Counted from the first letter of the stretch, positions 18,284 through 33,988 are shown. The stretch: 64,000 bases of DNA from an uncultured Planctomycetota bacterium (GCA_963845755.1 CAWJTV010000034.1:608001-672000); one strand, 5' to 3'. Notes: a model not told the origin generated them from the sequence alone. Translations and numbers: made by a program.

Positions 18284-18860
18284 CGTTGTCTCGTCCAGAA
18301 GGAAGACCTTGGGGTGGTCGCTCGAATCATCGCTTGCTATCGTAAATCCGAGCATTGAGGAAGACCGCTGCCAGATGAAGCGGTTCATGTCGATAATCTA
18401 GAACTCGCTCGGCCCGGAGGGGCGTCCCACGGTCCAGCCTCGGTGCGGAGTATCACCGTTAGTGTGCCGAGTTCCCGGCTCAGCAAACGTAAATGGAGTC
18501 CGCTGTATCGGTCGGGGCCATCCACCGATCGAATTGGCCCTCGCGATGATCTGGGCGTTCATGATCGCCATGTGCGCAGGTGGGTCGAACCTCGAACGCC
18601 CCTGATATCGTTCGGAAAGATCGAGGCAACCCAGGCGCGAAGGACGACCGTCTCCTCGGTCAAACCCGTCTTCGGGTCTCTGCCGGCGGGTTCTCGTACG
18701 GCAATCCCACGTACTCCGAAAAGAGTGGGTTCGGCAGCGCGACACATCGGCCTTCAGCTCTGTACTTGAGGCTCTCCGGGACGTTCCGCTCTTGACGCCG
18801 CTCGCGTAATCGGGATGTTACCAAGAAGGAGATCTTCGAATGCGGGGAGTCACGCGCACC

Positions 18861-20246
18861 ATGAACACATGGCTGAAGAATCTGGGGCTGGACCGTCCGG
18901 AGCTCCGGGCCTGGGCGATGTACGACTGGGCGAACTCGGCGATGGTATGCACGATCATCACGGCCGTATTCCCCATTTATTATTCGAGTGTGGCTTGCGG
19001 CGGGGTGATGAAGGAAGAGGGGGCGACGCGCTGGTACGCCATCGCGACGACCGTCGGGATGGTCATCATCGCCGTGATCTCGCCGCTGCTGGGTACCATG
19101 GCCGATTTCAACGGCCGGAAGAAACGGATGCTCGGCGGGTTTCTGACGCTCGGGGTCGGATCGGTCGCCGCGATGTTCTTTATCTACAAGGGCAACTGGA
19201 TCCTGGCCTCGATCCTCTTCATCCTGGCCAACATCGGAGCCAATGGCAGCTTCGTCTTCTACGATGCGCTGTTACCCCACATCGCTCGCAAGGATGAGGT
19301 CAACCGAGTCTCGACAGCCGGCTACGCCCTGGGCTACCTCGGCGGCGGCGTGCTGCTCGCAATGAACCTGGCCTGGATCCAGAAGCCGGAGTGGTTCGGG
19401 CTGCCGTCAGGGGAGAATCTGACGATGGCCCAGGCCACGCTCCCCGCGCGGCTGTCGTTCGTGTCGGTGGCGATCTGGTGGCTGGTCTTCTCGATCCCGC
19501 TGTTCCGTCGCGTGCCGGAGCCCAGGGCGACCGGGTTGCCCGTCGGGTACGAAGCCGAGGCCGGTTCGTCGCTCCCGATCCGAGCGGCCGTCGCCCGGTT
19601 GGGCGAGACGTTTCGAGCCCTACGCCGTTATCGCCAGGCGTTCGTCATGCTTCTGGCCTTCCTGATCTTCAACGACGGCATCGGCACGATCATGCGGATG
19701 GCGACCATCTACGCGACCGAGCTCAAGATCGATCAGGGGATCACGATCGCCTCGATCCTGATCGTGCAGTTCGTCGGCATCCCGTTTGCTTTCCTCTTCG
19801 GGATGCTGGCCGGCCGGATCGGCGCCAAGCTCTCGATCGCGCTGGGGCTACTGGTCTACGTGGGGATCTGCGTTTTCGGCTACTTCATGACCAATGGTAC
19901 GCATTTCCTGATCCTGGCCATCCTGGTCGGAACCGTGCAGGGAGGAACCCAGGCCCTGAGCCGCTCTCTCTTCGCCACGTTGATCCCGCGCGACAAGTCG
20001 GGCGAGTTCTTCGGATTCTTCGGCGTCGCCGAGAAATTCGCCGGGATCTTCGGGCCGGCCATCTTCGCCGTGATCAACTTCCTGAGCGGCTCCAGCCGCG
20101 GCGCGATCATCTCGGTCATCGCGTTCTTCATCGTCGGCGGCGGATTGCTCGCGATGGTTGATGTCCCGGAGGGTCAGCGAATCGCTCGCGAGGAAGAGGA
20201 TCATACCGACCACACACGGACGGCACTCGACCTCGAATCGAGCTGA
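18861..20246 (+). CDS. MFS transporter, UMF1/Atg22/YxiO family
   Basis: WAMYDWANS, FYDALLP, GYALGYLGG, GGTQALSRS, EFFGFF. Confidence 0.92.
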   Translation: MNTWLKNLGLDRPELRAWAMYDWANSAMVCTIITAVFPIYYSSVACGGVMKEEGATRWYAIATTVGMVIIAVISPLLGTMADFNGRKKRMLGGFLTLGVGSVAAMFFIYKGNWILASILFILANIGANGSFVFYDALLPHIARKDEVNRVSTAGYALGYLGGGVLLAMNLAWIQKPEWFGLPSGENLTMAQATLPARLSFVSVAIWWLVFSIPLFRRVPEPRATGLPVGYEAEAGSSLPIRAAVARLGETFRALRRYRQAFVMLLAFLIFNDGIGTIMRMATIYATELKIDQGITIASILIVQFVGIPFAFLFGMLAGRIGAKLSIALGLLVYVGICVFGYFMTNGTHFLILAILVGTVQGGTQALSRSLFATLIPRDKSGEFFGFFGVAEKFAGIFGPAIFAVINFLSGSSRGAIISVIAFFIVGGGLLAMVDVPEGQRIAREEEDHTDHTRTALDLESS

Positions 20247-20264: not shown

Positions 20265-21081
20265 TCATAATTCCTGTTCGGGACTGGCTGGTGTCCGCTT
20301 CACCCAGTGGGCCACGCTGATCGCCCACGACGCACCAGGTAGAGCACGGGGTAGCTCAACGAAGCCCAGGTCCCCCACAGCGTGGCCGCATCCCGTTGTG
20401 ATGCCGAGTCCGGTAGATTGTAGATCATCCAGACCAATGAGAAGGTCCAGGGGATGCCGAGGATCGACATGAACCGGTTGAACTTGCCCGGCAATGAGGG
20501 GTACAGGTAGCGGGACGGTACGAATGTGAGCAGGGCCAGCACGACGACGACCGCCAGCGAGACCCAGCTCCCGAACGGCAGTGCGTAGAGATACACGGCC
20601 ACCACGTTCCAGAGCGACGGGAAGCCGAGGAAATAGCCGTCGTCGGTCTTGGCCTGGACCTGGCAGAAGCCATAGGCACTGGCCACTAATGGGAGGAAGA
20701 GCCAGGCTTCATATCCGGCTGGCAGGATCCCCGCGCGATAGATCAGCATCAAGGGAAGGAACGTGTAGGTCAGGAAATCGATGATATCGTCCAGGCGGCG
20801 GCCATCGAAGCTGGGAACGGCCTCCTTGATCCGGACCCGCCGCGCCAGTGTGCCGTCGGTCGCGTCGACGACCGTGGCGATCACCATCAGCAAGAACGAC
20901 CCGCGAAACGCACCGGTCCTCCGTGGATGAGCAACACCGCGATCATCCCGGCGAGGATCAGTCCCAGCCCTGTGTAGGCGTGGACGCACCAACCCTGGAC
21001 CCGTTGGAGCAGCCCCGGCGCACGCCACTCGCGCTTCGGTTTCGCCACTTTCCGACGTCTACGTACTTGCAACTTGACCAT
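20265..21081 (-). CDS. pcs: Phosphatidylcholine synthase-like CDP-alcohol phosphatidyltransferase (frameshifts near 20915 and 20337)
   Basis: VHAYTGLG, DATDGTLARRVRIKE...DGRRLDDIIDFLTY, KTDDGYFLGFPSLWN follow the Pcs subfamily pattern. Confidence 0.8.
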
Positions 21082-21187
21082 CGAAGCCTCCTGGGGTACG
21101 CCCCGGCAGGATGAACGATGACTCAACCCGGTCTGACTCAACCTTCATCGTTCCCATCCCATCCCTGCCCCATGCAGGGTGAGGGAC

Positions 21188-22753
21188 CTACGACCTACGA
21201 CCTACTGGCCAAGCATGCTCCACCAATATCCCCGACTTCCTGCGCTGCACCAACTGATAGTAAACCGCGCCAGCGGCGAGCAAGACCAGGGTTGACAAGG
21301 GGGCGGCGAAACGGCCCAAGGGGTCCGGTCCGTAAATCTCGGCCCGCGGCCAACTGATATTCAGGACAACGAAGATGCCCCAGGCGACCGCGAAGGCGTT
21401 GACCGGCAGGCCGAGCCGACCAATCGAGAAGAGACCAGAACGATCGGCGACGGCCTCGACCTGGATGACCGAGCGACGGTCTGCGTGCGGTCCACTTCGA
21501 CGGAACCGCGCGAGCAACATCGGGAAGGTCACCAGCAGGTACGCCAGGTTCACCCAGACGATGGCGACCGAGCAGAGAGTCTCGATGACCCGCGGCAAGT
21601 TGATGTTCACGATCAACAGCGCGGCCGCCAGTCCGCCGATCAGGATCGGCGGCAGGATCGGGGCCTGCGTCCGCTCGGGCACGTGGCCGAGCAACCGCGC
21701 AAACGGGAGATTGTTGTCCCGAGCCATCGCGAAGACCAACCGGACCGTCCCGGCGTGGACGGCGAGCACGCAGACGAACACGGCGAGGATGACGTCGGCC
21801 AGGAACAAGGTGCCGATACCGGAGCCCAGTACATCCTTGATCAGGAAGGAAAGGCCGCCCGAGATCCGGCCGAGTTCAGGGAGGGTCGGGTCGCTCACCG
21901 CGAGGATGCTGAAAAGGATCAGCAACCCACCGGTCACGGTGGCGGCGCTGAGTGCCAGGAGGATCGCCCGAGGCGCACGGCGACGCGGCTGCCCGGTCTC
22001 CTCGGCCAGGGTACCAGCGGTGTCAAATCCATAGAGGACGTAAGATGCCATCAGTGCCGCTGCCAGGAATGACCCAATATAGCCGAGCGGTTGCCCGCTA
22101 CCCCGCCCCTGCGTGTCGAACAAGACGATCGGTCCACGAACGGCCCGCGCAGCCAGCAGGCCGATCAGCAAGACCACCCCAACCAGCTCGGCGGCGACCC
22201 CGACGTTGTTGATGCGCGCCATGAGCCGCACGCCGGCCACATTGATAACGGTGGTCGCTGCGATCAACACGCAGCCGAGTATCACCGCGTTGCGGGCGGT
22301 GTCCGAGAGGTTCGACGAGTCACCGATCAATTGGAACACCGGTGAGATCTGCGGGAGCGTGGCCTGCGGCGCCAGGGCGACCGCCGATAGCGAGATCACT
22401 GAGCCGCACAAATAGACCCAACCGGCCATCCAACCGACGGCGCGGCCGCCGGTCCGCCGAGACCACTGGTAGATCCCCCCCGACAGCGGATATTGCGCCG
22501 AGAGCTCGGCGAAGCACAACGCCACGGTCAGTTGCCCCAGGAACACGGCCGGCCAGGTCCAGAAGAAGGCGGGACCCCCGGCCCCATAGCCCACGTAGAA
22601 CATCTGGAACACGCCGGTCAGGATCGAGATATACGAGAACCCTGCGGCGAACGCGGAAAAGCTGCCGAGCGTCCGGTCGAGCACCGGCTTGTAGCCGAAG
22701 GACGCCAGATCCCGACTATCATCCGGGAAGGATGAAGGATCAACGTTTTCCAT
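21188..22753 (-). CDS. APC-family amino acid/amine permease
   Basis: FGYKPVLDRTLGSFSAFAAGFSYIS, FAELSAQYPLSGGIYQW, GFDTAGTLAEET; about 12 TMs. Confidence 0.9.
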   Translation of the reverse strand: MENVDPSSFPDDSRDLASFGYKPVLDRTLGSFSAFAAGFSYISILTGVFQMFYVGYGAGGPAFFWTWPAVFLGQLTVALCFAELSAQYPLSGGIYQWSRRTGGRAVGWMAGWVYLCGSVISLSAVALAPQATLPQISPVFQLIGDSSNLSDTARNAVILGCVLIAATTVINVAGVRLMARINNVGVAAELVGVVLLIGLLAARAVRGPIVLFDTQGRGSGQPLGYIGSFLAAALMASYVLYGFDTAGTLAEETGQPRRRAPRAILLALSAATVTGGLLILFSILAVSDPTLPELGRISGGLSFLIKDVLGSGIGTLFLADVILAVFVCVLAVHAGTVRLVFAMARDNNLPFARLLGHVPERTQAPILPPILIGGLAAALLIVNINLPRVIETLCSVAIVWVNLAYLLVTFPMLLARFRRSGPHADRRSVIQVEAVADRSGLFSIGRLGLPVNAFAVAWGIFVVLNISWPRAEIYGPDPLGRFAAPLSTLVLLAAGAVYYQLVQRRKSGILVEHAWPVGRRS

Positions 22754-22838
22754 CCTTCAGCCCTCGGCCTTCGGCGTTCCGAAGACGCTTTTAGCGATCC
22801 GAAGACACGTTCAGCCTTTGTCCCCTCTCATTCATCCT

Positions 22839-23672
22839 TCAGCCCTCATCCTTCGGCCTTCCCGAGGGAGCGGAGCGAGCGAGGTAGATGCCCCATTTCA
22901 TATCGACGGCCTGGCAGAAGCCGACCTTCATCGCCCAACGCTCGACGAGGTAATTCAGGTCGGCCTCCGAGAACGACGCGAGGAACTCGGCGCGGTGATT
23001 GGTCAGTCGGTCCATCTCGGCCTGAAGGATCTCGACGAATTTGGCGGTGGCGTCGTCAACAACAACATCCACGAATCCGGCAGCGCGGAGTCGTTCGCCG
23101 TATTGCTCGGGCTCGATCACGCTGTAGCCGGTCTTCTCGATGTAGCGCTCGAATTCCGCCGAGCCGGGCGACTTGCCGCGCACGTAATCGGTGATCGCCA
23201 GCCGGCCGCCGGGGGCCATGAGCTGATAAAGCCGGGAGAATAGTCGATCTTTATCGGGGATGTGCATGAAGGCGTCCCGGCTCCAGATGACATCGAACGG
23301 CTCGGAGAACGTCGTCTCGAGCACGTCGCCGAGCAGGAAGTTCACCGAGTCACCCATCCCGAGTCGCGCGGTCTGCTCGACGGCGATGGCGACCATTTCC
23401 TCGGCGAGGTCGATCCCCGTGACCTTCGCCCCATAGGCACGGGCCACGTGGAACGCGGCACCGCCGATCCCGCTGCCCACGTCGAGCACGCGCGCCCCCG
23501 GCCGAAGTGCCGAGCCCAGCCGGGCGCAGAGGTCCTCGGTCGTCGCGTGGCCGCCGGTGCTGATGTATCCCTCACCGAAGATCTTCTCGTATCTCAGGAT
23601 CGAGGTACGGCTGTACTGTCCATTGTTGTCGAACTTCGAACTGGCCGTCGGGGCGGTTTGGAGCGTCGTCAT
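22839..23672 (-). CDS. SAM-dependent methyltransferase, phosphoethanolamine N-methyltransferase (PMT/PEAMT)-like
   Basis: QYSRTSILRYEKIFGEGYISTGG, VLDVGSGIGG, WSRDAFMHIPDK, PGGRLAITDY, W..K......MKWG; recalled resemblance to plant PEAMT C-domain and Plasmodium/nematode PMT. Confidence 0.82.
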   Translation of the reverse strand: MTTLQTAPTASSKFDNNGQYSRTSILRYEKIFGEGYISTGGHATTEDLCARLGSALRPGARVLDVGSGIGGAAFHVARAYGAKVTGIDLAEEMVAIAVEQTARLGMGDSVNFLLGDVLETTFSEPFDVIWSRDAFMHIPDKDRLFSRLYQLMAPGGRLAITDYVRGKSPGSAEFERYIEKTGYSVIEPEQYGERLRAAGFVDVVVDDATAKFVEILQAEMDRLTNHRAEFLASFSEADLNYLVERWAMKVGFCQAVDMKWGIYLARSAPSGRPKDEG

Positions 23673-23829
23673 GGGATGCCTGAATTCCGAGGTTTCCGTC
23701 CACTCCCGGCACAGCGGCCGGGAGAAACTCGCTAAAGCGAATATTATGCGAAGGTTACGCGAAGAATGTAAAGACCGCGTTCGCCGGCCGCATCCCCTGA
23801 TAGGGAGACCGAGCAGACTGACCGCGGCA

Positions 23830-24776
23830 CTACGAGGTTCCTCCAGGAGGTGTCGGTGCGACGGAATCCAGCCGCCGTCGGGCCGTTCGATACGCCTCAA
23901 AGTTCTCGCGGGCATACCGTCCATAATCGAAGTCGATGTCGGAGTTCAACGACTGGATGACCGCCCAGAGAGCCTCGCGGAGCAGCGACACGGCCTGAAA
24001 GATTCGCAGCTCGGCGAGATCGCGCGGGTCGGGCTTAACGGTCTCACGATAGGCCGACAACAAGGCAATCTCCTGGTCCTCGGCAAGTGCGGCATTGGCC
24101 GAGACGTTGGCCAGGTCGAACAGGGGATGGCCGACCCCGCCGTATTCCCAGTCAACCAGCCAGAGCCGACAGCCATCGTCGATCAGGTTGGCCGGCAGCA
24201 GATCGTTGTGGCAAAGTACCGGCCGGAACGGTGCGATCCGCCATGATAATTGGCGGGCGTCCTCGAGCATCGCGGCGATGTCGAATGGCGTTTCCGCGCC
24301 GAGCCGGGCCGCCGTGCGCAGCGTATGTGCGTACGGTCTGGAACGGACAGAAATACAGGACCTCGCCGGCCAGTGAGTCCCATGCCCCGTGAAGGCGGCG
24401 GAGCAGGGCCGACCAGGCGATCGAGTACGTCCGGCGAGGAAACATCGGTCGCCGCCAGGGTCCGCCCCTCGACGAAACGGGTGATGAGTAAACCGTCCTC
24501 GTGATGGATGGTTTCCGGCGCGAGTCCCCAGGCGCTGACCACTTCTTGACAGACCGCCTCGTTGCGGCGGTCGATGCCCAGCAACGGACGCGGTACGCAG
24601 AGCCGCGCAACATAGGACTCGGCCGCGCTGCCACCGATTCGGATCGCGAAGTTCCGGTTGGTGATCCCTCCGGTGATTGGCCGGATCGCCGGGTCGTTGC
24701 GCCAGAGTCCCAGCTCGTTCAGCCGGCGGATCAACGCGGGCCGTGGGTCCGTGGGGGCATCGTGGCCATCGAGCAT
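23830..24776 (-). CDS. Choline/ethanolamine kinase family phosphotransferase (frameshifts near 24405 and 24310)
   Basis: GGITNRNF, GIDRRNE, LCHNDLLPANLI, LVDWEYGG...FDLAN. Confidence 0.85.
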
Positions 24777-27721: not shown

Positions 27722-27942
27722 TCAATGATGCCGATGTCGCCGTGAGAAAGGGCCGGGGAGTGTCCGGAGAAGACAGGACAAGCGGAGCGGGGCGTTTCGG
27801 TGGGTCCGAGATGGCCAAGGCCCTGGTGCTGGTCGCGACGAACGTCGGGGGCTTGAGCCGGATGCGAACCCCAGCCGAGGTCGTGATCGGTGGCAACGCG
27901 GTCCCGCCCGGGCGAGCGGCCGCGCCGTATCGAGCCGGTCAG
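27722..27942 (-). pseudogene. Orphan 3' end of a paralog of the giant surface-protein gene
   Basis: LPPITTSAGVRIRL...DTPRPF aligns with LPPISGWAGVRIRL...DTPSPF at 38723-38941; both contain CGAGCCGGTCAG. Confidence 0.75.
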
Positions 27943-27947
27943 AGGCG

Positions 27948-27965
27948 AAAAAGGGGGACGGCTTT
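27948..27965. repeat. GTCCCC-family motif abutting the RAYT stop codon
   Basis: AAAAAGGGGGACGGCTTT, inverted relative to AAAGCGCTATGTCCCCGTTTTT upstream of the gene. Confidence 0.75.
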
Positions 27966-28629
27966 TACGCTTGCTCTTTGCGAGGCCGGCCTCGGGGACG
28001 CAAGCACGACTCGAGCCCCAGCCGAATCGCGGTCTTCCGGGTCCAGGCCTCTCCGCCGAACGGTCGGCCCCGTGACACCGAGTGCCGCAACCGCTGGAGG
28101 TCGCCGGCCGATGAGCGGCTCGTTGACGCGCTCCAGCCACCGATCATCGCGGACCGGCACCCGGCCCCGCCACAGCAACGGATCGCGACGCAGCCAGCCG
28201 GGGAGGCTCGACCACGTCCAGTCCTCGGCTCGTGAGACCAGTTCGGCCCGCAACGCATTCCGTTCGACGTAGCGGAGCACCGTGACCAGATGGTCGTCAC
28301 TCTGGACGGGGAACGCCTGGAACCGCCCCTGCCAGATGTGCCCCGAGGTGCCGTAATGGCGATGGTAGCGGCGCGCGTGGGCCGTGAGCAGCCACTGCAT
28401 CCAGCGACCCAGGTCGCCATCCTGCTTGGTTCTCAGCACCAAGTGGAAGTGGTTGGGCATCAGGCAATAGCCGAGGAGGTCAAACCGGGAGGCGGGCGCG
28501 AGCGTCAACCATCGCCTCGACGAAGGCGTCATAATCACCAGGCTTGTGGAAAACGGCCTCGCGGCGATTGCCCCGATTCAGGGCGTGATACCACATCCCA
28601 CCGACCGAGGCGCGAGCGGTTCGCGGCAT
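27965..28629 (-). CDS. REP-associated tyrosine transposase (RAYT, Y1 HUH, IS200/IS605 superfamily); frameshifts near 28485 and 28110
   Basis: MPRTAR...YHALNRGNRREAVF, YCLMPNHFHLVL (HUH), GHIWQGRF, RYVERNALRA, DWTWSS, RPRGRPRK. Confidence 0.92.
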
Positions 28630-28636
28630 GCCGCTC

Positions 28637-28665
28637 ACTGTACTCAACGAGGTCCCGGCTGTCAA
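28637..28665 (-). promoter_or_regulatory. Sigma-70 promoter of the RAYT gene, probably leaderless
   Basis: TTGACA-N17-TACAGT-N7-ATG on the minus strand; the -35 abuts the first repeat. Confidence 0.6.
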
Positions 28666-28845
28666 TAAAGCGCTATGTCCCCGTTTTTCCTGCGTTTTTC
28701 CCCTTGTCAATAAAGCGCTATGTCCCCGTTTTTCCCGTATGTCCCCGTTTTTCCCGTCCCCACTGAAGACCTATACCTTTGCACGGCGCACTATGTCCCC
28801 GTTTTTCCCCCTTGTCCCCGTTTTTCCCCCTGTCCCCGTTTTTCC
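28660..28845. repeat. Repeat cluster A (TATGTCCCCGTTTTTCC family)
   Basis: Two copies of TGTCAATAAAGCGCTATGTCCCCGTTTTTCC plus four shorter TGTCCCCGTTTTTCC copies. Confidence 0.9.
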
Positions 28846-29796
28846 TGCTCCCCTATGGCGTGACCGTTTCCGTTGTCGCCGGACGTACGCGAGTGAGCCG
28901 ACAGCGCCCATGCTGAGAAGGGCGAGGGTAGAGGGTTCTGGAATAGAGTTGTTGAAAGTAAGCCGGGCCACTCAAGCCGCCACCGCCGAAATCGTTGATA
29001 AACGCCCCTGTCGTGCCATTGAAACGCAGCATGACATTATTGTTAAAGTCGCTAACTAGGAGATCGCCTCCCATGAACGCTAGCCCAACGAGATTTGCTG
29101 CTGAAAAGGGGATCAGTGGCGAAGACGTTCATAAATGCGCCTGTCGTCCCGTTGAAACGCACAACATCACCACTGAAACCGCCGCTGACATAGAGGTTCC
29201 CGTCTGGCCCGAAGACCATTCCTCCGGCTCCATTCGAGCCCGCCACCAGAGGCGAAGACATTCATAAATGCGCCTGTCGTCCCATTGAAACGGAGGACAT
29301 TATTGTTGTGGAAATCGCTGACGTACAGATTGCCATCCCGTCCAAAGATTAGATCCTCGGGTTCAACCAGTCCTCCACCGGAGGCGAAAGTACCCAGAAG
29401 AGCTCCGGTCTTGCCGTCGAATCGCTCAATTCGGTCACCAACGCCGATGTAAAGATCGCCGTCCGGCCCGAAAACCAGGCCATTCAGTTCACCCGAGCCG
29501 CCGCCGCCAGTCGGAATAAATACATTCACAAATGTTCCATTCAATCCATTATAACTCAGAACACTTCTGGAATTAAAGCTTGTAACGTAAAAGTTGCCAT
29601 CGGGCCCGAAAGTCTGATCCACTGGTCCATCCAATCCCCCACCAGAGGCGAAGGTGCCGAGAAAGGCCCCCGTCGTCGTATCATAACGCAGCACGCTGTT
29701 GGTGAAATAGCTGCTGACTATCAGATCCGCCTTTGCTCGCCCCACTGCTCCCAGGAGCGAAGCCAAGGCCGCCAAGCCCCATGCGATTCGTTTCAT
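28771..29796 (-). CDS. PEP-CTERM protein 1, NHL/beta-propeller repeats (frameshifts)
   Basis: Signal peptide ...AKAD; repeated FGPDGNLYV...VLRFNGTTGAF; IPEPSTLALLSMGAVGSLAYVRRQRKR. Confidence 0.85.
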
Positions 29797-29837
29797 CGTT
29801 GTGTCTCACACTTGAGGTTAGCACCTATCGGTGGGAT

Positions 29838-30027
29838 GAGGTCTGACTCCACACCTCCGGACCGCACGCCTCCGGGAAATAACTAGAAACTAGGTCTGCC
29901 CACAAGCCTCCCAAGGTCTGCCCACAAGCCTCCCAAGCCTCCCATAACTAGAAACTAGGTCTGCCCACAAGCCTCCTTAAAGCGCTATGTCCCCGTTTTT
30001 CCAAGCTTCTCTATGTCCCCGTTTTTC
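29838..30027. repeat. Repeat cluster B
   Basis: Two copies of ATAACTAGAAACTAGGTCTGCCCACAAGCCTCC (29879, 29944) with partial copies, then two CTATGTCCCCGTTTTTC. Confidence 0.88.
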
Positions 30028-30093
30028 TTTCCAGTTTTAGTGTCGCCTGACAGACCCTGCCCCCGCTTTCTCTCTGGGTAGTATCACAAAGGG

Positions 30094-30931
30094 TCAGCCA
30101 CGAAGGCGAAGGGATCGACGGTGCCAGCCGCAGGCAAGCCCGATCACTGCTACGGTACCACACATCACCAGGGTGGAGGGTTCAGGTACGCTGCTTGCCT
30201 GTGCATATCCGAGATTGGCCGAATTAGCATTCATGATCTGATCGAAATTTAATGATATTTTTTTATCCACTTCTGAATTCGATATGCTGAAAGGAACGCT
30301 GAAATCTACCGTCATCAGGGTGGCGATCGTAGTCGACCCAGATGTTGTCACCGCGAAGTCGCTGGGTGAGAACGCCCCAGATGTCGTCAACACACCATCA
30401 ACGAGGGAGGCGCCGGCCGAAAAAAGAGTCTGCCCATTGAGAAGAAGCTGAAATGACATGGCCGACGAGGCACTACCCCGGTTGACCAGGAAGGGGTCGA
30501 TGTGGAGCTTGAAGATACCCAGGTTGAACACTTGCCTGGAAAACGAGGATACCGTCTGCGTCTGCTGAGGCAAAGACGGCGGATGTTTGTTTCGTCCCGG
30601 CATCTGTAAGGGCGTTCGTAGAAACGTCAAAGCCAAACTCAGACGTTACACTAGAAGCAAATGTGTCAGCAAATGAAAAAGTGTGCATTGGTACCGCAGT
30701 TCCTTCTGCTTGACCGGACACGCTGGCAACGACGCCGGTATCTAGATCGGCGAAGTCGGCTCCATCGGAACTCGTAGCACCTATGGCCGCGATACAAGGA
30801 TTCGGTGTAAAGACGAGACCAGGGATTTGAGGAATTAGAATTGCGCCCGCCCACGCGTCGGACCTTGAGCTGACGAGGGTCATGGATAATGCGATCAGGA
30901 ACGCGGTCGAGCGAGGCATGGAACGCGACAC
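30094..30931 (-). CDS. PEP-CTERM protein 2 (frameshift near 30540)
   Basis: AAGGAGGT RBS plus GTG start, signal peptide, SSVPEPSTLVMCGTVAVIGLACGWHRRSLRLRG; AT-richer than the host genes. Confidence 0.82.
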
Positions 30932-30963
30932 GGTCTTTACCTCCTTGAGGGGAAAAGAGGGAA

Positions 30964-31254
30964 CCAAAAAGGGGGACAGGCCAAAAAGGGGGACATAAGG
31001 CCAAAAAGGGGGACAGGCCAAAAAGGGGGACATAAGGCCAAAAAGGGGGACAGGCCAAAAAGGGGGACATAAGGCCAAAAAGGGAGACAGGCCAAAAAGG
31101 GGGACATAGCACATATTTGGGCATGCCCTACGTCCCCGTTTTCTCATGTTGGGCCAAAAAGGGGGACATAGCGCATATTTGGGCATGCCCTACGTCCCCG
31201 TTTTCTCATGTTGCGATCCGACCGGGGCAAAAACTTGAAACTAGGTCTGACCCC
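30964..31254. repeat. Repeat cluster C with inverted REP-like doublets
   Basis: Eight tandem CCAAAAAGGGGGACA(TAA)GG units alternating 17/20 bp; two GGGGACATAG-N-CTACGTCCCC hairpins; AAACTAGGTCTGACCCC. Confidence 0.92.
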
Positions 31255-31312
31255 GAGCCACCCCCGAGGGGCGATCCCCTGAGGGCGACCCAGCCCGGTC
31301 CTCACTTTCACT

Positions 31313-32149
31313 TCACTTGCCTGACCGGCGCCGGCGAGCGACGCAGCCCAGGCCTGCCAGAAAGGCTGTGCCCGCCATGACCAAGGATGCGGGCTCGGGC
31401 ACCCCGGCCACGGCGATGTTGTTCACGGCGACGGGGCTGAAGCTTCCGCTCAGTATGGAACTGAAGAGCGGCGTGGAGGATTCGAAGGCGAACCCCAATC
31501 CGATGGTCCTGCTCGACACAAGTAGGCTCGCGAACGGGGAGCTAGCGGCACTGGACCCGGCCGTGATGTTGTTGACCAGCAGGTCGAAGCGGTTGCCCAT
31601 CGAGCTCTCGTTGTATTGGACCCCTTCAACGGTCCCGGAGAAATAACTGCCCACGGTGAGCGACGCGGTGGACGCGGGGAAGAACTGGGCCACGTTAACC
31701 CCGAACGCAGTTCCCGTCCCGACCAAGTTGAAGCTCCCTGAGACCGAGACTGGCGCGCCTACGATCGGGTCCGAGGCGAAAGACGATCCCGTGACGAAGT
31801 CCCCAGTGAAGTTCAGGACGCCAGCGCTCATGCTTGCAGTCCCGTTCGAATTGAGCGACCCGCCGTTGCTCAGCTCTATGACGGGCCCGGAGGGCGGAGG
31901 CGGAGTCGGAGGCAGGACGCATTGACAGGTGGTCATCACGTCGAGGGGGCTTCCATGCTTGTCCTTGATCGTAACGTCGAATGTCGCGCACATGTCCGGA
32001 GCCATGCAGTCAACATTGGCGCAGATGCCCTGTTTGGTCGTCTTCGAGATGCCATAGAGGCAATCTCCCGATCTGACGTTGGGGCACCATGCAAGTACCA
32101 ACGCGACCACCGGGAGCGACGTGAGCACTGACGGAACGCGCCTCATCAT
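31313..32149 (-). CDS. PEP-CTERM protein 3 with a Cys-rich N-terminal module
   Basis: AGGAGGT RBS; signal peptide; six Cys followed by PPTPPPP; GVPEPASLVMAGTAFLAGLGCVARRRR. Confidence 0.88.
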   Translation of the reverse strand: MMRRVPSVLTSLPVVALVLAWCPNVRSGDCLYGISKTTKQGICANVDCMAPDMCATFDVTIKDKHGSPLDVMTTCQCVLPPTPPPPSGPVIELSNGGSLNSNGTASMSAGVLNFTGDFVTGSSFASDPIVGAPVSVSGSFNLVGTGTAFGVNVAQFFPASTASLTVGSYFSGTVEGVQYNESSMGNRFDLLVNNITAGSSAASSPFASLLVSSRTIGLGFAFESSTPLFSSILSGSFSPVAVNNIAVAGVPEPASLVMAGTAFLAGLGCVARRRRSGK

Positions 32150-32194
32150 CCACCTCCTATAGTTCGCCTCAGGGAATACCGACAACGTCGCTGC

Positions 32195-32620
32195 GGGGGT
32201 CAGACCGGGTTTCTGGGACCAAAAAGGGGACATAGCGCATATTTGAACAGGAACCAAAAAGGGGGAAAAGGACCAAAAAGGGGACATAGCGCATATTTGA
32301 ACATGCCGTGCTCTGAAGATTACCCACGAAATGTGCTACGTCCCCGTGTTCTCGCATATTTGAACATGCCGTGCTCTGAAGATTACCCACGAAATGTGCT
32401 ACGTCCCCGTGTTCTCGCCCATGCCGTGCTCTGAAGATTACCCACGAAATGTGCTACGTCCCCGTGTTCTCGCCCCCGTTTTCTCGCCCCACGAAATGTG
32501 CTACGTCCCCGTTTTCTCCCTTTCTCGCCCCACGAAATGTGCTACGTCCCCGTTTTCTCCCTTTCTCGCCCCACGAAATGTGCTACGTCCCCGTTTTCTC
32601 CCTCGTCCCCGTTTTCTCCC
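32195..32620. repeat. Repeat cluster D
   Basis: GGGGGTCAGACC; two AAAAAGGGGACATAGCGCATATTTGAAC; three longer units and three 41-bp units each containing ATGTGCTACGTCCCCGT(G/T)TTCTC. Confidence 0.92.
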
Positions 32621-32641
32621 TACCTTATCAGATACTTCGTT

Positions 32642-33637
32642 TCACCGTCGCCGGCCGAAGAATCCGGCCGTCGTAGCGAAACCAATGACGAAGAGGACGA
32701 GGCTGGAAGGTTCAGGGACAGATTCATAAGCTCCGATCACCTCGCTGCCGGAGATGCCAATCGCTATGGTAGAAGTGCTCCCGGACACGTGGAGCGTAGT
32801 GTAAGTCGTCCCGTTGTACAGGAAGCCGTAATCAGTCCCGCCGCTTTGATAGAATCCGACCACGTTGCTGCCGTAGACGCCCAACGGCCCGGTCAATGTG
32901 GCCCCAGGCACGGCGAGCGTGGTGTAGGTCCCCGCGTTGTACAGGTAGCCGTAATACTTCCCGCCGCTTTCATAGGTTCCGACCACGTTGCCGCCCGAGA
33001 CGCCCGCCGCTTCGGTCAATGTGGCCCCAGGCACGGCGAGCGTGGTGTAGGTCCCCGCGTTGTACAGGTAGCCGTAATACTTCCCGCCACTCTCATAGGT
33101 TCCGACCACGTTGCCGCCCGAGACGCCCGCCGCCCCGGTCAATGTGGCCCCAGGCACGGCGAGCTTGGTGTAGGTCCCCGCGTTGTACAGGAAGCCGTAA
33201 TCAGTCCCGCCGCTCTTATAGGTCCCGACCACGTTGCTGCCCGAGACTTGCCTTGCCGCAGTCAATGTGGCCCCAGGCACGGCGAGCGTGGTGTAGGTCC
33301 CCGCGTTGTACAGGAAGCCGTAATCAGTCCCGCCGCTCTTATAGAATCCGACCACGTTGCCGCCGTAGACGCCCGTTGCCTCGGTCATTGTGGACCCGCT
33401 CGGGGCGAGCTGGGTGAAGATCCCCGCGCTCTCCATGTAGCCGTAATTAGTCCCGCCGCTTATATAGAATCCGACCACGTTGCCGCCCGAGATGCCCGTT
33501 GGCACCGTCGCTGTGGACCCAGGCACGTCGGACAGGGTGTAGGTCCCCGCGTTGTACAGATAGGCGTGCCCCGCTTTCGCTTGCCCGTTGCCGAAAATGA
33601 GGACCGCAGCCGCCAGCAGCCATGTCAAGTGTCTCAC
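32642..33637 (-). CDS. PEP-CTERM protein 4 with 41-aa tandem repeats
   Basis: AAAGGAG RBS plus GTG; 123-bp repeats encoding G(F/Y)LYNAGTYTTLAVPGATLT...GVSGGNVVG; SVPEPSSLVLFVIG...GRRR. Confidence 0.9.
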   Translation of the reverse strand: MRHLTWLLAAAVLIFGNGQAKAGHAYLYNAGTYTLSDVPGSTATVPTGISGGNVVGFYISGGTNYGYMESAGIFTQLAPSGSTMTEATGVYGGNVVGFYKSGGTDYGFLYNAGTYTTLAVPGATLTAARQVSGSNVVGTYKSGGTDYGFLYNAGTYTKLAVPGATLTGAAGVSGGNVVGTYESGGKYYGYLYNAGTYTTLAVPGATLTEAAGVSGGNVVGTYESGGKYYGYLYNAGTYTTLAVPGATLTGPLGVYGSNVVGFYQSGGTDYGFLYNGTTYTTLHVSGSTSTIAIGISGSEVIGAYESVPEPSSLVLFVIGFATTAGFFGRRR

Positions 33638-33660
33638 TTGTCCGTCTCCTTTCGTCAATG

Positions 33661-33988
33661 GTAACCGTTCACCCCCCGTGAACCTTTTGTACAGTAAGTA
33701 CGTATTGCTGTGTATGAATCACAAGCTTCCGATCCCCGAACCACTCTGGAACACCATCCCCGCTGATGCCCAGGCCGCTCTTCTGACCGCCTGGAAGGAG
33801 ATGGAAGATCGGATTGCCGCGTTGGAAGCCCAAATGCGGGACCTCCAAGCCCGCCTACAACTCAATTTCACCAACCCGTCCAAGCCTCTTCATCCGACCC
33901 GATCGGCCTAAAATGCAAGCCGCCGTCCCCGCGAAAACGCGGGGGACAGCCCGGCCATCGCAAGGCGTTCCGAGTCTTGGTCCCGCTT
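33661..33988 (+). mobile_element. Truncated IS66-family element (one end plus the transposase 5' fragment)
   Basis: Begins GTAACCGTTCA like the intact IS66 ends; MNHKLPIPEPLWNTIP...coiled coil...GGQPGH; stops at the repeat motif. Confidence 0.75.

Follow-up and report, generated by a model that had tools for sequence, protein, structure and literature searches.

A 64,000-nucleotide stretch of DNA from an uncultured Planctomycetota bacterium (the window; G000:C34:608001-672000, where G000 is the source assembly of 14.3 Mb) carries four co-oriented genes on its minus strand at 20265-24776. These encode, in order, a choline/ethanolamine-family kinase, a phosphoethanolamine N-methyltransferase (PMT) homolog, a permease and a phosphatidylcholine synthase (Pcs) homolog, as originally predicted. 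The cluster was confirmed to be a real, conserved system across much of the family Isosphaeraceae. From sequence and structural modelling, PMT and Pcs are predicted to make phosphatidylcholine (PC) without phosphatidylethanolamine (PE) via a phosphobase route entered from phosphoserine (probability roughly 0.62). An unlinked pyridoxal phosphate (PLP)-dependent decarboxylase would convert O-phosphoserine to phosphoethanolamine, which PMT would methylate three times to phosphocholine; a putative phosphatase encoded outside the cluster would release choline, and Pcs would combine choline with CDP-diacylglycerol to give PC. The kinase would provide a side entry by salvaging free ethanolamine, and the permease would import choline for Pcs when available. 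Gene identities (from sequence and fold), linkage and co-occurrence are observations, from which every substrate and reaction is predicted. G001 denotes a same-genus relative of G000; other G, L and P numbers denote genomes, loci and proteins of relatives.

Identity of the methyltransferase

The PMT gene (22839..23672, minus strand; ATG at 23672) is intact and encodes a single-domain protein of 277 aa. The top 11 PDB sequence matches were all PMTs (E 1.7e-67 to 1.9e-39), the next match being at 8.8e-22. The best was 5wp5 (Arabidopsis PMT2, C-terminal domain; E 1.7e-67), whilst the Plasmodium enzyme PfPMT (3uj6) was matched at E 7.6e-41 as compared to 1.2e-15 for the sarcosine/dimethylglycine methyltransferase (SDMT) 2o57. 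The predicted model (pLDDT 93) exhibited TM-scores of 0.79-0.89 to PMTs versus 0.70 to 2o57. All of the PMT hallmark motifs noticed originally were present (i.e. QYSRTSILRYEKIFGEGYISTGG, SRDAFMHIPDK and WAMK...KWG).

The active site was examined at ten positions in PfPMT numbering. Gln18 is a phosphobase ligand of PfPMT and Asp128 has a catalytic role. The other eight positions are named in the accessible part of PMC6705855, which gives Tyr19/His132 as the catalytic dyad. The catalytic residues are kept as Tyr20, His137 and Asp133 (PfPMT Tyr19, His132 and Asp128) in 119-120 of 120 close homologs, all six phosphobase ligands (Gln18, Tyr27, Tyr160, Tyr175, Tyr181 and Lys247) are kept in PMT, and nine of the ten site residues are conserved in 119-120 of the 120 close homologs. 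Eight SDMT-like proteins, 21-25% identical to PMT, keep 4/10. With the SDMT model NF041675, PMT scored 66 bits against a cut-off of 550 and the SDMT-like proteins scored 352-422. PDB matches, fold and site residues support the original assignment of a PMT-type rather than a sarcosine/dimethylglycine enzyme.

Many homologs are already labelled phosphoethanolamine N-methyltransferase in the JGI annotation. No informative PMT fusion was observed among eight longer homologs, which is weak evidence; one 553-aa protein (P0122) bears two PMT-like stretches. A divergent PMT-like branch (L097; P0133, P0150, P0209 and P0253) has Tyr27 replaced by Ser and His132 by Tyr or Phe. One of its genes lies near a phosphoenolpyruvate (PEP) mutase gene in Nocardia, and two of its proteins are apparently fused, as read from sequence, to a cytidylyltransferase-like N-terminus; members of this branch are candidate phosphonate methyltransferases.

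Conservation of the cluster

Conservation was assessed in 120 other genomes of the Isosphaeraceae; these relatives are not independent and the counts describe patterns rather than statistics. G000 is assigned to this family by the named homologs of its PMT, which belong to Isosphaeraceae such as Aquisphaera giovannonii, A. insulae and Paludisphaera borealis (P0306 in the last species). PMT was present in 76/120, and in 0/24 genomes from other families of the same class. Pcs was found in 85/120 genomes; of the 76 PMT carriers, 74 have it. The kinase family matched 55/120; exclusion of eight genomes whose sole match was a 31-41% paralog left 47 with a kinase ortholog, 44 of which have PMT and the other three of which are partial assemblies, and the kinase distribution follows that of PMT. 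The 33 genomes with neither PMT nor Pcs contained neither a kinase ortholog (0/33) nor the 6OUX-like decarboxylase described below (0/33).

Inspection of 58 of the 76 PMT loci, picked for long contigs, identified the gene sets PMT-permease-Pcs (30), kinase-PMT-permease-Pcs (12), kinase-PMT-Pcs (4), PMT-Pcs (3), kinase-PMT (4) and PMT alone (4), with one locus truncated at a contig end. The full four-gene form was therefore in a minority (12/58). Gene order was identical throughout, indicating clustering beyond chance. PMT lay upstream of Pcs in 49 of the 58 loci and the kinase was adjacent to PMT in only 20; co-conservation is supported for PMT with Pcs. A conserved sigma70-like promoter, TTTACA-N18-CATAAT, lies between the kinase and PMT (23743..23772, minus strand). 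A site of this type precedes PMT in 30/58 loci, always with an 18-nt spacer; the pattern was defined only after the motif had been seen, and control counts were 0.015 (shuffled mean) and 0 (opposite strand). By this sequence pattern, PMT-permease-Pcs is likely to be a separate transcription unit.

Predicted source of phosphoethanolamine

Two types of decarboxylase could supply phosphoethanolamine. The first matches PDB 6OUX, whose title reads only threonine phosphate decarboxylase-like and which we take to be SMUL_1544, decarboxylating serine phosphate. The product of SMUL_1544 of Sulfurospirillum is proposed to be ethanolamine phosphate in the accessible part of PMC4585668. Searches for the 6OUX-like gene matched 48/120 genomes, or 47 once a 28% match had been left out. 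G000 has an ortholog (C20:346913-348056, 51%), and for the intact copy of G001 (L237:6028-7299) the match to 6OUX was at E 1.1e-102. All 47 carriers have Pcs and 43/47 have PMT. CbiB was found in only four of the 47 and not in G000, and therefore cobamide synthesis does not explain the 6OUX-like gene; unlike SMUL_1544 and CobD, the family gene lies outside cobamide clusters and, in 43/47 genomes, without CbiB. CobD-like genes, by comparison, occur in 35 genomes of another subclade with zero overlap with the 6OUX-like carriers. The second type, a CobD paralog, was detected in 14 genomes, all PMT-positive, being head-to-head with PMT in nine (e.g. L197:4937-6145) and twice between kinase and PMT.

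Among the 76 PMT genomes, 32 had no detectable kinase ortholog, several of these being 99-100% complete, and 30 of the 32 carry a phospho-amino-acid decarboxylase (22 of the 6OUX type and eight with the PMT-linked CobD paralog). These counts do not support, in its original form, the prediction that imported ethanolamine is the entry to the pathway. Salvage could still be the sole function, the permease importing ethanolamine, the kinase phosphorylating it, PMT methylating the product and the decarboxylases being unrelated. The adjacency of kinase and PMT in 20/58 family loci and in the proteobacterial loci L091 and L107, the related kinase in a permease-eutB-eutC run (L052) and the presence of EutB in G000 are consistent with such a scheme. 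Against it are the kinase-less genomes, a permease that tracks Pcs and a separate permease beside eutB in G000, and we consider salvage alone unlikely.

A phosphobase operon with its own decarboxylase was identified outside the family. In the Desulfobacteraceae locus L090 (5980-8744), a PMT gene (MT2) stands first, ahead of a PLP-enzyme gene that matches 6OUX (E 7.9e-117) and a gene for an N-terminal PMT domain (MT1; E 1.6e-44). Of the metagenome loci (14 found, 12 inspected), 4/12 repeat this three-gene set (L262, L264, L265 and L266) and two more show two genes. The operon is predicted from sequence to be a split plant-type phosphoethanolamine N-methyltransferase (PEAMT) with its own phosphoethanolamine source. 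No Pcs was seen near these operons.

Other candidate sources were rejected. CobD group B is the usual CobD of cobamide synthesis; many genomes have it at a distance of 1-3 kb from CbiB, and its PMT-negative carriers all have CbiB (9/9). A phosphatidylserine decarboxylase (Psd)-like gene (L044) was present in 3/22 family genomes, a distribution unlike that of PMT, and none of the group II PLP decarboxylases of G000 is close to a named model. The L044 product (L044:931-2178; G000:C33) is a patchily distributed PSDC + PS_Dcarbxylase protein that falls under all Psd cut-offs, and no PssA partner was found. Separately, the 6OUX-like decarboxylase occurs within polysaccharide-type loci in L268, L269, L271, L272 and L273, beside a small haloacid dehalogenase (HAD)-like gene in 4/5, where glycan decoration may draw its ethanolamine from this enzyme. 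Of 21 loci with the decarboxylase, eight have a gene resembling formaldehyde-activating enzyme nearby (L238, L242, L243, L244, L245, L247, L251 and L253).

Kinase and permease

The kinase gene (23830..24776, minus strand; ATG at 24776, stop at 23830) matches PF01633 on both of its pieces, and an intact ortholog matches PDB 3dxq at E 2.3e-23 and the choline kinase 4r77 at E 9.2e-17. In the aromatic pocket of LicA-type kinases, the first Trp of a W-x-L-W motif cages the trimethylammonium group of choline. This Trp is Glu in 39/39 ortholog rows (overlapping loci being counted twice), as it is in the eut-linked kinase of L052, and for this reason the cluster kinase is likely to be an ethanolamine kinase with a salvage role. 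Identification as the guanitoxin kinase GntI was rejected at ~200 bits versus a cut-off of 357. A second choline-kinase-family paralog of G000 (L053:5324-6343; G000:C8; 34%) retains the Trp motif, and in several genomes without the cluster kinase the sole kinase matches are of similar distance.

The permease (21188..22753, minus strand; 521 aa; PF13520) belongs to the APC superfamily and scored 514 bits with TIGR03428 (cut-off 740), 152 with TIGR00907 and just 44 with the ethanolamine permease model TIGR00908. It adjoins Pcs without PMT in L054, L055, L056 and L057; three PMT-negative genomes (G020, G034 and G060) keep it beside Pcs, as does G021, whose PMT lies elsewhere. As the permease accompanies Pcs even in the absence of a neighbouring PMT, choline supply to Pcs fits better than the ethanolamine supply to the kinase that was originally proposed, and the protein is likely to be an importer of choline (or an amino alcohol) for Pcs. 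Related genes lie in eut contexts, namely a permease-eutB-eutC-kinase run at L052:1269-6251 (G057) and an eutB gene with a related permease at L227 (G000:C11, about 480100-483200), separate from the cluster permease.

Pcs and alternative routes to PC

The Pcs gene (20265..21081, minus strand; ATG at 21081, stop at 20265) has five Pcs models as its best NCBIfam matches, with 139 bits in the window and 140-146 bits in intact orthologs, and for the orthologs these models were the sole matches at E 1e-8. The motif DG-x2-AR-x8-P-x3-G-x3-D-x3-D, which we take to be the Pcs motif, is present in the window protein and in 8/9 aligned orthologs, and is identical in PMT-positive and PMT-negative genomes (seven and two sequences, respectively). 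A PDB sequence search gave no match for Pcs. Characterised Pcs enzymes take free choline, monomethyl- or dimethylethanolamine, according to the accessible part of PMC8590670. No phosphocholine cytidylyltransferase (LicC/CCT) was found among 13 PF12804 matches (one of them unnamed) and five PF01467 matches in the 88% complete G000, and a phosphatase would therefore be required before Pcs. A HAD gene behind the L266 operon was rejected as a candidate for this step, being present in 1/6 such loci with no homolog in G000.

The alternative routes to PC look to be missing from G000. Searches of G000 identified no PmtA over cut-off, the PmtA-like match being OlsG, and no Legionella-type PmtA. No PssA was present among three CDP-alcohol matches, in a search that also missed Pcs and did not extend to phospholipase D-type PssA. 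Neither BetA nor PEP mutase was found. The Psd family was matched in 21/76 PMT genomes and in none of the other 55. The OlsG gene (288 bits) lies beside an alpha/beta hydrolase gene in an ornithine-lipid locus (L045; G000:C49:21298-24675).

Weighing of the pathway

A series of observations speaks against the phosphobase route from phosphoserine. At the entry step, the 6OUX-like gene was near PMT in 0/21 family loci inspected (G000 and 20 of the 47 carriers), 12 PMT genomes have an ordinary CobD-type gene only, and seven (<=76% complete) are without either decarboxylase type. Each decarboxylase type follows its own subclade, and common descent can therefore account for a large part of the co-occurrence. 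G000 is only 88% complete and contains a Psd-family gene. The major lipids of Singulisphaera acidiphila are trimethylornithine lipid (TMOL), PC, phosphatidylglycerol and phosphatidic acid in the accessible part of PMC12493201, which would be in keeping with the route if this species carries the cluster; the same source gives a medium with yeast extract and peptone, and the PC of this species could therefore derive from imported choline.

At the exit step, the cluster contains no phosphatase or cytidylyltransferase, as was already noted in the original prediction, and neither is conserved nearby in the 58 PMT loci; the 21 decarboxylase loci likewise exhibited no conserved phosphatase, and G000 contained no PHOSPHO1-type PF06888 phosphatase. 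This gap would be accommodated by two independent modules, with permease and Pcs using imported choline only and the phosphocholine from PMT serving surface decoration, storage or osmolyte functions. The occurrence of permease and Pcs without PMT in well-assembled genomes (e.g. G020 and G034) points the same way, as does the normal reliance of Pcs on outside choline described in the accessible part of PMC8590670. The position of PMT upstream of Pcs in 49/58 loci, with a shared promoter-like site in 30, argues for a joint function, and G000 has no LicC or BetA (LicD and EptA-type transferases were outside the search); separate modules are thus judged to be as improbable as salvage alone.

The part of plant PMT that the cluster protein resembles is its C-terminal domain. 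In plants, this domain performs only the last two methylations. No first-step (MT1) domain homolog was found in G000 at 88% completeness. PMT may then be a finishing enzyme like nematode PMT-2, acting only on mono- or dimethyl-phosphoethanolamine derived from kinase salvage or from another first methyltransferase. Its best matches are indeed C-terminal or PMT-2 domains, and the Desulfobacteraceae retain a separate MT1 gene. This reading, which we regard as distinctly unlikely, would leave kinase-less genomes without a substrate. G000 has no MT1 homolog that could be found, and the Plasmodium PMTs, likewise single-domain and sharing this fold, accept phosphoethanolamine according to the accessible part of PMC4357015.

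The one site residue that differs is Arg179, a phosphate ligand in PfPMT, which is replaced by Thr (Thr181 in the window PMT) in 119/120 close homologs; small residues occupy this position in other single-domain homologs too. In addition, Pcs reaches less than half of any curated cut-off (best 146 bits versus 300-440). A change of substrate could remove the need for a phosphatase, if the Arg-to-Thr PMT took a phosphodiester or free amino alcohol or if Pcs accepted an activated choline. The invariance of the Thr and the divergence of Pcs from all curated models would suit this proposal. It is nevertheless very unlikely, as PMT retains the remaining phosphate ligands, PMT-negative genomes have an identical Pcs motif and no cytidylyltransferase was found in G000.

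Phylogeny gave a divided answer on the original distinction between PMT and SDMT. In an unconstrained 98-row tree, the proteins of the family formed one clade (support 98) inside a PMT group (SH-aLRT 97) with C. briggsae PMT-2; approximately unbiased (AU) tests did not reject the joining of family PMTs to SDMT-like rows with either 34 rows (p 0.131) or 98 rows (p 0.635), the constrained tree scoring 12.9 higher in the latter. The trees held no assayed PMT or SDMT sequence. Because the AU tests reject neither grouping, the PMT assignment rests on similarity, fold and residues and not on the tree. Production of glycine betaine by a sarcosine/dimethylglycine-type enzyme, or methylation of aminoethylphosphonate, would agree with these tests, with the NCBI label of one homolog (P0109, sarcosine/dimethylglycine N-methyltransferase) and with phosphonate-catabolism-type genes near PMT in L197. 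Both activities are highly improbable given the NF041675 scores (66 versus 352-422 bits), the four of ten site residues kept by SDMT-like proteins, the absence of PEP mutase from the matches in G000 and the restriction of flanking phosphonate genes to 1/9 comparable loci. The phosphonate link was rejected, with the TIGR03364 oxidoreductase and PhnX-like hydrolase genes being beside PMT only in L197 (2910-4770) and forming a pair unlinked to PMT in G000 (C43:28127-29991).

Locus structure and assembly state

Intergenic gaps down the cluster are 157, 85 and 106 bp. Two of the genes are interrupted. As compared to G001, the kinase reads across three frames with single extra bases near 24412 and near 24320, and Pcs reads across three frames with single bases missing near 20914 and near 20336. 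A rough count, including some antisense and duplicate queries, identified similar splits at 15/50 gene places of the G000 assembly (~30%), and the base at 20914 is present in a contig from another sequencing run; contigs of other runs span the cluster only piecewise. On these grounds, the four indels are probably assembly errors.

An Atg22-like major facilitator superfamily (MFS) transporter gene (18840..20246, plus strand; PF11700) is the convergent neighbour of Pcs, and such a gene adjoins Pcs in 38/58 family loci. An Rfam scan gave just two matches, both at chance level. The ORF list indicated a region of lower GC at 27939-33664 of the window with a transposase-like ORF, PEP-CTERM-like proteins and short imperfect intergenic repeats.

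Relation to known pathways and implications

The cluster PMT has the fold and site residues of Plasmodium PfPMT, plant PEAMT and nematode PMT-1/PMT-2, is single-domain like PfPMT and has the same predicted phosphoethanolamine-to-phosphocholine step. It differs from the eukaryotic phosphobase pathway in being bacterial and in the Arg179-to-Thr change. Eukaryotic entry is by serine decarboxylase and kinase, whereas entry here is predicted to be from phosphoserine, and exit would be through Pcs (no CCT being found in G000) instead of CCT and choline phosphotransferase. Pcs shares family, motif and a neighbouring transporter with the Pcs pathway of Sinorhizobium, Agrobacterium, Pseudomonas, Legionella and Borrelia, which relies on outside choline in the accessible parts of PMC8590670 and PMC10434233; in the Isosphaeraceae, Pcs is linked to predicted choline-making genes and, unlike the named systems, falls below every curated Pcs cut-off. 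Both the bacterial PmtA/PmtX route and the predicted route comprise three S-adenosylmethionine-dependent N-methylations ending in PC. PmtA methylates the lipid PE, whereas the pocket of the cluster PMT is of the soluble phosphobase kind; OlsG is what the PmtA-like gene of G000 encodes. In the Lic-1 and Treponema denticola CDP-choline pathways, too, a CDP-alcohol phosphotransferase has a LicA-like kinase and a transporter nearby; unlike these, the cluster has no LicC that could be found, a kinase without the first pocket Trp and a Pcs-like transferase.

PMT loci in proteobacterial metagenome-assembled genomes (L087, L091, L107 and L094) have choline-kinase-family, betaine-type ABC transporter, GcvT/dimethylglycine-dehydrogenase-like or glucose-methanol-choline (GMC) oxidoreductase neighbours. 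The PMTs of L087 and L091, the two checked, retain Arg179.

PMT-like genes were reportedly noted in Burkholderia by a 2011 review. The accessible parts of two reviews count four bacterial PC routes and state that Pcs needs outside choline (PMC8590670, PMC10434233), and the accessible part of PMC4357015 ascribes PMTs to certain eukaryotes. A literature search, with most subscription papers outside its reach, identified no report of bacterial phosphobase methylation or of the cluster. The PMT gene type is not unheard of in bacteria, as the JGI labels attest; the route is the part found undescribed.

The evidence leans slightly towards a broader proposal. The Isosphaeraceae would have a fifth bacterial route to PC, de novo throughout (i.e. 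phosphoserine decarboxylase, a single trifunctional PMT, dephosphorylation and Pcs), with two non-orthologous cobamide-type decarboxylases recruited as the entry in two subclades, and the Desulfobacteraceae PMT-decarboxylase-PMT operon would extend phosphobase methylation beyond the family. The route is directly testable, as carriers are cultured (A. giovannonii, A. insulae and P. borealis) and knockouts are feasible in the family. If correct, it would extend the history of an antiparasitic target family by a bacterial branch, give SMUL_1544-type decarboxylases a function outside cobamide synthesis and constitute a new de novo choline-making route in bacteria. It could also account for Singulisphaera having PC among its major lipids when no PE is reported there.

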